This document shows positions 11,855 to 13,163 of a DNA stretch of 64,000 nt, in pieces. Source of the stretch: Candidatus Bathyarchaeota archaeon. Lineage in GTDB: Archaea; Thermoproteota; Bathyarchaeia; 40CM-2-53-6. The stretch is taken from NCBI GenBank assembly GCA_963833125.1, contig CAWHWX010000019.1:96001-160000 (forward strand). Reading direction: 5' to 3'. Made by a program: the position numbers and the translations under genes. The notes beneath the pieces are model-generated. The model was not told the origin of the DNA. It worked only from the letters and a program-made list of their open reading frames with translations, and did no database searches. Positions within the stretch are counted from its first letter, which is position 1, and the number at the start of each line of letters is the position of its first letter.

Positions 11855-11952
11855 AGACACGAAATTCATACGCCTTGTAGGCCAACGTTCGCCAAAACAA
11901 TTCTCTTCCTTAATAGCGTCAAAACGCTACCTCCTACTGTGAGGTGAATTGT

Positions 11953-12962
11953 TTGCAAGTTGTCACGCCTTGGGCCGTGAGCAGGGAGATGATTACGAAG
12001 GTTGAGGAGACGACGAATGCAACCTATGGCTGCAGGCCCGAAGACAGGCCGATACAGCTCAGGATAAAATACGGCCTCGTAAATCTGGATAAACCCCCAG
12101 GCCCTTCCAGTCATGAAGTGGTGGCTTGGATTAAGCGTATGATGAAGCTTTCACATGCCGGTCACGGCGGAACCCTAGAGACCTCATAGTCGGGGCAATC
12201 CAAAGGTAACCGGCATCCTACCAGTCGCGCTGGAGGAAGCCACGAAAGTCGTTCAAGGTTTCCTCTACTCAGGCAAGGAGTACGTATGCGTAATGCAGGT
12301 GCATGCCGACATACCGGAAAGCACTGTCCGTGATCTTCTGAATGAGTTCGTTGGGGAGATGTGGCAGAAGCCTCCGTTGAGGGCTTCGGTGAAGAGGGAA
12401 CCGCGGAAGCGTTTCATCTACCAGCTTGACGTTTTCGAGATCGATGGAAGGAAGGTTCTCTTCAAATGCTCCTGCCAAGCCGGGACATACATGCGCAAAC
12501 TATGTTCGGACATAGGCGAGGTGCTGGGGTGCGGAGCGCATATGCAGGAGCTAAGGCGAACACGTGCGGGACCCTTCACTGAAGACACATCACTTGTCAC
12601 CTTACACCAGCTTAGCGCGGCTCAAACTGACTTCGAATCGGGTGACGAGCACGCCTTGATGAAAATCATACAACCAATGGAGGTCGGCGCTCACTTCTCT
12701 TCCTAAGGTTGTTATCCGCGACTCTGCAGTCGACTCCGTCTGTCATGGGGCTGACTTGGCGTTGCCAGGTCTTTTGCAATTGGATTCCGCTATTGAACGG
12801 AACCGGCTGGTTGCCATTTTCACTTTGAAGGGTGAGGCCGTGGGCTTGGGACGAGCGCTCCTCACTTCTAGAGAGATGCTGGATCAAGAGAGAGGCGAGG
12901 CGGTAAAGATTGTACGTGTCATTATGGAGCGGGGCACTTACCCTGCTTTGTGGAAACATTAG
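11953..12962 (+). CDS. cbf5: H/ACA RNA-guided pseudouridine synthase Cbf5, intron-containing
   Basis: LDKPPGPSSHEV, GHGGTL[D]PKVTG after removing 19 nt, KEYV, QKPP, GTYMRKLC, ELRRTR, PUA domain; extra G near 12686 shifts the frame (probable error). Confidence 0.95.
12179..12197 (+). other. Pre-mRNA intron with bulge-helix-bulge motif in the cbf5 catalytic Asp codon
   Basis: AGACCTCATAGTCGGGGCA; removal restores G|AT (Asp) and the reading frame; CCCT/GGGG central helix, AG|A and CA|A bulges, GAC/GTC intron stem. Confidence 0.9.
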
Positions 12963-13046: not shown

Positions 13047-13163
13047 GCCGGGGTTCCCTAGCCTGGTAAGGGGCAGATTCATGACGCCTAGGCCTGGAAT
13101 CATGGAACCGTAAGCCTGTGGTCCTTTGGGGCCTCGAGGGTTCAAATCCCTCTCCCGGCGCCA
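13047..13163 (+). tRNA. tRNA-Ser(GGA) with two introns (29/30 and 37/38), encoded CCA
   Basis: GCCGGGG/TCCCGGC acceptor, discriminator G, long variable arm, GAGGG-TTCAAAT-CCCTC T arm; removing 13077-13091 and 13100-13112 gives CAGGC-CT-GGA-AA-GCCTG. Confidence 0.85.

Follow-up and report, generated by a model that had tools for sequence, protein, structure and literature searches.

A conserved, most likely spliced bulge-helix-bulge-type intron in the catalytic codon of cbf5 from a Bathyarchaeia archaeon

In the genome of a Bathyarchaeia archaeon, the gene for the pseudouridine synthase Cbf5 carries 19 extra bases (12179-12197) inside the codon for its catalytic Asp, which is split as G/AT at 12178/12198. 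Is this insert an intron that is removed from the message, and if so, how widely do archaea carry it and how old is it? We examined the locus in its window, the whole stretch of 64,000 nucleotides that was analysed, and compared it with cbf5 loci from many other genomes. The catalytic role of this Asp is taken from PMC2738675.

The gene closes a ribosomal-protein cluster (adk, L34e, cmk, L14e), and no other cbf5 was found in the genome (completeness 87.8%). Its features are, in window coordinates:

11953, + strand: start codon TTG, inferred from a GAGGTGA motif at 11941-11947
11953..12178, + strand: cbf5 exon 1; its last base, G, is the first of the Asp codon; NCBIfam CBF5 positions 6-70, PRK04270 positions 2-67
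12179..12197, + strand: putative intron of 19 nt; excision gives GTLDPKVTG; 252 of 335 unique loci have an insert here
12187..12189, + strand: in-frame TAG within the intron; terminates translation of unspliced mRNA
12198..12962, + strand: cbf5 exon 2 including the end of the PUA domain; opens with AT, the rest of the Asp codon; NCBIfam CBF5 positions 70-234 and 238-322
12686..12687, + strand: extra G; shifts the cbf5 frame ahead of the PUA domain and is separate from the intron

Three pieces, with the NCBIfam CBF5 positions given above, cover the Cbf5 models. Left in place, the insert makes the frame read GHGGTLETS and then run into the TAG. An earlier note on this DNA had described this stop, placed the 19-nt split in the Asp codon and proposed that its removal restores GTLDPKVTG; coordinates, stop and restored frame all proved correct. 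The restored motif also occurs in solved Pyrococcus-type Cbf5 chains. When excisions of 10-39 nt were scanned over starts 12165-12199, GTLDP in an open frame came only from 12179-12197 and 12180-12198. These two give an identical product because both ends are A, and we chose the former because of its bulge geometry. In other genera of the same family, the Lys of DPKVTG is replaced by Met or Ile (L024, L029, L046, L048-L056).

The 19 nt might have been introduced by the assembly, as were the 1-2 nt errors found elsewhere in the window. Such errors do exist in this assembly, and one of them is in cbf5 itself: the spliced frame is broken again at 12686-12687 by a G that is missing in the five close relatives compared, probably an assembly error, so that one gene combines an intron with a 1-nt error of the ordinary sort. 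Of 21 matched same-genus relatives, 19 have open frames of 257-260 aa. The insert, however, is identical as a 19-mer in another genome (L003), has 19-nt variants in all 21 matched same-genus relatives and is also present in independent metagenome contigs. We give an artefact almost no credence, and the earlier distinction between the insert and the small indels stands, with the addition that this gene contains one of those as well.

Group I and group II self-splicing introns have a catalytic RNA core of hundreds of bases. The insert has only 19 nt, and the only Rfam match in the window is to a tRNA. The minimum-energy fold of the junction pairs CCCU (12173-76) with GGGG (12192-95) and has a bulge, AGA, at 12177-79 and the stems GAC/GUC and GGA/UCC. 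Its elements are:

12155..12216, + strand: distal exon-exon stem (12155-62 with 12209-16), which lengthens the hairpin; predicted fold
12169..12201, + strand: exon-side stem, GGA (12169-71) with UCC (12199-12201), which closes the motif
12173..12176, + strand: 5' strand of the central 4-bp helix, CCCU, in exon 1; pairs with 12192-12195; fully paired in 218 of 230 junctions
12177..12179, + strand: 5' bulge of 3 nt, AG/A; predicted cut at 12178/12179, after the fold and cut rule of PMC2738675
12180..12191, + strand: intron-side stem GAC/GUC with a 6-nt loop; first two pairs retained in 144 of 155 junctions
12192..12195, + strand: 3' strand of the central helix, GGGG, in the intron; C-G replaced by U-A in a compensatory manner at three positions among relatives
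12196..12198, + strand: 3' bulge, CA/A, within a 3x1 loop with A12172; predicted cut at 12197/12198

The fold is of the bulge-helix-bulge (BHB) kind and the borders fall between bulge residues 2 and 3, which is how PMC2738675 defines this class of intron. The helix, the 3-nt bulges and both stems had been described before and are retained here, whereas two points had been missed: A12172 is unpaired, so the 3' bulge CAA sits in a 3x1 internal loop, and the motif is relaxed on the exon side. In the strict register, the exon-side helix has one A-U pair followed by an A-C mismatch, and a slip of 1 nt gives it three pairs. The strict canonical hBHBh' motif has at least two Watson-Crick pairs in each outer helix (PMC7714728); the intron side of the cbf5 junction has them, but the exon side does not. 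As modelled, the junction is a relaxed bulge-helix-bulge and not a textbook one, and most crenarchaeal cbf5 introns are likewise relaxed (PMC2738675). Within the exon-side stem, two G-C pairs are invariant in all 37 distinct 19-nt junctions.

Local folding energy is weak evidence for an intron. The z score was 0.02 in the window 12160-12215 (56 nt) and -2.53 in the window 12155-12217 (63 nt), the latter chosen post hoc with the fold already seen. Pair probabilities for the central helix were 0.88-0.98 in windows of 76-141 nt versus 0.46-0.48 in the 56-nt window. A genome-wide scan for BHB-like motifs was too unspecific to serve as an intron finder, returning 91,372 matches, of which 5,928 were frame-joining look-alikes; the cbf5 site ranked 12th. 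A chance fold is ruled out because the insert recurs at the same base in other genomes, including 36 of 36 genomes of the family.

This recurrence comes from a survey of cbf5 in related genomes, which the earlier note had proposed. We fetched 370 cbf5 loci from genomes, of which 363 were parsed (L092, L187, L253, L299, L302, L303 and L366 were unparsed and excluded) and 335 were unique. With the site defined as lying between the base after the Leu codon and the two bases before Pro, 252 of the 335 unique loci had an insert of 11-76 nt. Removing it restored Asp (G+AY) in 252 of 252, and the site reads Asp in all 335, although the parser did not require Asp. The longest inserts are of 76 nt (L148, in G154), 75 nt (L413, in G170) and 67 nt (L338, in G360); the shortest is of 11 nt (L138), and a group of 13-14 nt inserts is nearly without an intron-side stem. 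At a different place in the gene, exon 2 of one cbf5 (G364:C7:246-2321, - strand) is split by about 1.6 kb within a 784-aa open frame, which may be an intein.

All four pairs of the central helix form in 218 of 230 distinct junctions, versus a mean of 179 and a maximum of 189 in 5,000 partner shuffles, a comparison uncorrected for kinship. Compensatory C-G to U-A changes affect the second pair in 39 of the 230 and the third in 8, and registers slid by 1-2 bases are found in 0-6 of 155 junctions. The helix-forming Thr codon is ACC or ACT in 167 of 167 insert loci, whereas 16 of 26 intron-less loci use ACA or ACG there; the exon codons are constrained solely where the insert is present. The distal stem averages -11.4 kcal/mol with the insert (n=177) versus -5.6 in intron-less loci (n=68), and -13.0 (n=106) versus -5.6 (n=13) within Bathyarchaeia, a difference that was not significant in a tree-paired test (median p 0.25).

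These features bear on whether the ribosome might bypass the insert by a frameshift, hop or readthrough, with the RNA left uncut. Others have treated such genes as frameshift cases, according to PMC2738675. Yet the insert lengths occupy all three frames (57, 62 and 48 of 167), so that no one fixed shift or stop suppression accounts for them, and Asp is restored by excision only. What is conserved is the helix pairs and the 3-nt bulges, which match EndA substrates, and spliced cDNA has been reported for the crenarchaeal cases (PMC2738675). Bypass strikes us as very improbable, and we proceed with the reading that the insert is cut out of the RNA.

In a gapped scan of metagenome contigs, among 80 matches listed of at least 120, 63 had the insert and 17 did not; we counted L475 as intron-less by eye, setting aside the parser's reading of a 27-nt insert. 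Family f1 was the best match of none of the 17 listed intron-less loci. Nine divergent loci among the 63 were placed, and none fell outside the clusters of the phylum Thermoproteota. A degenerate motif for intron-like codons in an uninterrupted junction matched no metagenome contig and none of 414 loci, in a collection not known to contain transcripts.

Does the host have the enzymes for such splicing? The nearest named relatives share 76-78% identity; four of them are labelled Bathyarchaeia or Bathyarchaeota and the fifth is labelled as a bacterium. The 80 relatives' cbf5 loci are nearly all labelled Bathyarchaeia, bearing out an earlier guess of a bathyarchaeal-like host. The genome has two EndA genes (alpha and beta subunits). 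The alpha subunit best matches the crenarchaeal catalytic subunits 3p1z, 3ajv, 2cv8 and 2zyz and aligns to 2cv8 with no gap over S34-S44, the region of the crenarchaeal EndA extra loop (PMC2724299); in the second subunit, the GIDH motif is missing its His. By its gene content, the genome thus appears to encode a two-subunit, hetero-oligomeric EndA of crenarchaeal type. Genes for RtcB, Nop10 and Gar1 were also found.

Many tRNA genes of this genome are interrupted, including one shortly downstream of cbf5:

13047..13160, + strand: tRNA gene; Rfam tRNA match; two-excision scan with ARAGORN

This gene is best read as tRNA-Ser(GGA) with two introns of about 15 and 13 nt, Thr readings tying on score. 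The 15-nt intron lies in the anticodon stem and the 13-nt intron after the anticodon, and ARAGORN missed the unspliced gene. The tRNA is a further substrate of the enzyme that would act on the cbf5 intron. Contig G000:C28 of this genome has three uninterrupted tRNA genes, unlike most, and may be contamination (6.99% reported). A tRNA-Val(CAC) region occurs three times, on contigs C2, C3 and C16, possibly as duplicated strain sequence.

EndA might also cut the cbf5 message mainly for destruction, leaving the gene effectively off or decaying. In yeast, TSEN cleavage sends mRNAs to decay, with no ligation (PMC10485636), and this assembly does have a second frameshift in cbf5. Against this, the gene is the sole cbf5 copy, its partners Nop10 and Gar1 are retained, the protein encoded by exon 2 shares 74-89% identity with same-genus relatives, most of which have open frames, and Asp is restored at every junction. 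There is little to recommend destruction as the main fate, and splicing to a functional message remains our reading.

These data lead us to regard 12179-12197, with high confidence, as a real and conserved BHB-type intron of cbf5 that EndA and RtcB most likely splice. The pre-mRNA would form a hairpin with the relaxed bulge-helix-bulge, an alpha2-beta2 EndA would cleave at AG/A and CA/A, and RtcB would ligate the exons and rebuild the GAU codon. Ribosomes on unspliced message would halt in the intron, and the released fragment, of about 78 aa, would have no catalytic Asp. The single gene copy and the in-frame stop suggest that Cbf5 output depends on splicing.

An insert whose length is a multiple of three would not by itself shift the frame, and such inserts follow a rule. 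All 48 distinct inserts of this kind contain an in-frame stop, compared with 89 among the 182 inserts of other lengths (Fisher p 3e-13, relatives being non-independent). A further 14 distinct inserts of such length from metagenome contigs all have one, giving 62 of 62. For the first 45, shuffles of the intron interior gave a stop in 16 on average and in 23 at most. In an even draw across the phylum, among 143 full-span single matches listed, with 213 weaker ones outside the listing, 121 were without extra length and stop, and the other 22 had extra length, with a stop in 22 of 22. The multiple-of-three state changes about 30 times on the tree, and a tree-paired test of the stops was not significant (median p 0.06) because many inserts of other lengths also have stops.

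We found no description of this pattern in the literature searched. A similar stop bias is known for eukaryotic introns. The rule may reflect selection against a full-length enzyme without an active site, which could sequester guide RNAs and partners; selection would then retain a stop in every intron with a length divisible by three, and no full-length dead Cbf5 would be made. If the rule survives a proper phylogenetic test, the unspliced message does get translated, and the old proposal of regulation by splicing becomes testable.

The same genome has a second insert of this kind in an mRNA gene. In glyA (G000:C1:374650-374680, - strand; L209), a 31-nt BHB-like insert with an in-frame stop lies at NRYAE/GW. 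Among 29 SHMT-family loci of relatives, 13 have inserts of 25-34 nt (L235-L247 among the carriers), 7 have none and 9 were unparsed. The central helix of glyA in this genome has three of four pairs, which is why the genome-wide scan missed it. A later frameshift lies near C1:373905. The pcm gene of this genome, examined for an insert, is an intact open frame of 242 aa.

How far does the cbf5 insert extend? It is present in 190 of 265 genomes and in 48 of 64 families, and 9 of the 10 class-level groups of Thermoproteota include carriers. Class membership came from eight class draws, and part of the loci were hand-picked, so the class tallies are not frequencies:

Bathyarchaeia: insert in 62 of 67 genomes (own family, 36 of 36)
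class of G063: 31 of 36
class of G227: 10 of 28
class of G067: 19 of 32
class of G069: 26 of 29
class of G066: 23 of 23
class of G068: 17 of 17
G064: 1 of 1
G065: 1 of 1
class of G061: 0 of 31

G065 is counted apart because its family is absent from all class draws, and a small Bathyarchaeia-like contig inside G090 (L205/L360) was excluded from the tallies. Families were labelled by eye, from how their translations compare with the named sequences aligned in supplement S3 of PMC2738675. On this basis, the class of G063 includes Sulfolobaceae-, Desulfurococcaceae-, Pyrodictiaceae-, Ignicoccus- and Ignisphaera-like families, that of G227 includes Pyrobaculum-, Caldivirga/Vulcanisaeta- and Thermofilum-like families, and that of G061 includes a Nitrosopumilus-like family. 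These labels provided positive controls. The insert is present in the Sulfolobaceae-, Desulfurococcaceae- and Ignisphaera-like families and absent from the Pyrobaculum-, Thermofilum-, Pyrodictiaceae-, Ignicoccus- and Nitrosopumilus-like ones, in agreement with Table 1 of PMC2738675 in both directions. Of five genomes tested in the class of G067, two have mcrA. As a marker of ammonia oxidisers, TIGR03080 proved unsuitable.

Within Bathyarchaeia, intron-less cbf5 genes are nested among intron-bearing ones in an unrooted Cbf5 tree. At least 12 state changes are needed on the tree of 192 rows (L057 was too short for this large tree and omitted) and at least 14 on that of 54 rows, and a single clade of intron-bearing cbf5 was rejected (p-AU 4.6e-55; single-gene tree). 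These results imply many gains or many losses. L485, from a metagenome contig, is a Bathyarchaeia-like cbf5 without the intron that retains the distal stem and the motif's complete exon half, and may be a recent loss.

The same splicing could have arisen by repeated gain at one permissive site, or spread sideways, instead of descending from an ancestor. The number of changes and the rejected single clade speak for this. In addition, pairing with the exon imposes the 3' GGGG, which is no proof of homology, and repeated gain at shared positions has been argued for Asgard tRNA introns (bioRxiv 10.64898/2026.10.13.758758). A clade of Bathyarchaeia with Sulfolobales/Desulfurococcales-like sequences was absent from the best tree but unrejected (p-AU 0.18; single-gene, no outgroup root), which also counts in favour of such a history. 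On the other side are the breadth of the range, in nine of ten class-level groups and 48 of 64 families, and the Cbf5 clusters, which mostly track class groups. Intron-less cbf5 genes, including those nested in Bathyarchaeia, also mostly lack the exon half of the motif, which a new gain needs. We consider repeated gain or spread a possible history but clearly the less probable one. Provided that the rest of the explanation holds, the intron was probably present in the ancestor of the phylum and then lost many times. A single ancient gain with many losses is suggested by the distribution together with exon-motif decay in intron-less genes, the trees being unrooted. The whole account, namely a phylum-ancestral Thermoproteota intron carried by nine of ten classes, lost a dozen times and equipped with a fail-safe stop, with EndA-dependent mRNA splicing normal in Bathyarchaeia (glyA included), seems to us more likely than not.

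If this account is true, mRNA splicing by EndA in Bathyarchaeia is no curiosity of hot-spring crenarchaea. The phylum-wide range would make the cbf5 intron a very old mRNA intron, and its many losses could be used to study intron loss in archaea. For annotation, cbf5 would appear as two broken frames in these genomes unless the intron is known.

The closest known system is the crenarchaeal cbf5 pre-mRNA intron, published in Sulfolobales and Desulfurococcales only (Yokobori et al. 2009, PMC2738675, which also cites Watanabe 2002 and Yoshinari 2006). That intron separates the first letter of the same Asp codon from the second, and the match in position and BHB-type fold agrees with what had been claimed earlier. 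The two are alike in gene, site, relaxed motif and two-subunit EndA host, and the 19 nt here fall within the published 16-44 nt, too small for a nuclease gene. The Bathyarchaeia host, in contrast, is outside the published range, and the insert lengths in our survey, 11-76 nt, exceed the published ones. Splicing has been demonstrated in the crenarchaeal cases, whereas here it is predicted from DNA sequence. The available text of PMC2738675 mentions frame-keeping introns but not their stops, and it infers that the ancestor of the two orders gained the intron; in our survey, the insert occurs in nine of ten groups, including families classed with Thermoproteales-like genomes. It shares its site with the intron of the two orders, with a continuous distribution, on trees that are unrooted and single-gene. 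The literature searched, most subscription journals being outside its coverage, contained no report of a cbf5 intron from Bathyarchaeia or from the phylum as a whole. The earlier note had inferred that a bathyarchaeal host would extend the range, and the extension is larger than supposed. This appears to be a known kind of intron in new hosts, well beyond the two heat-loving orders of the published cases.

Two other systems are comparable. The 5'-UTR intron of HVO_1309 in Haloferax volcanii is also an mRNA substrate of EndA through a BHB motif (PMC7714728). It lies in an untranslated leader, whereas that of cbf5 lies in coding sequence, and Haloferax EndA is alpha2 (PMC10485636), unlike the two-subunit enzyme here. 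The non-canonical BHB introns of archaeal tRNA genes share motif and enzymes with the cbf5 intron, and the tRNA genes of this genome are interrupted likewise. Being in an mRNA and not a tRNA, the cbf5 intron is additionally constrained by the reading frame.
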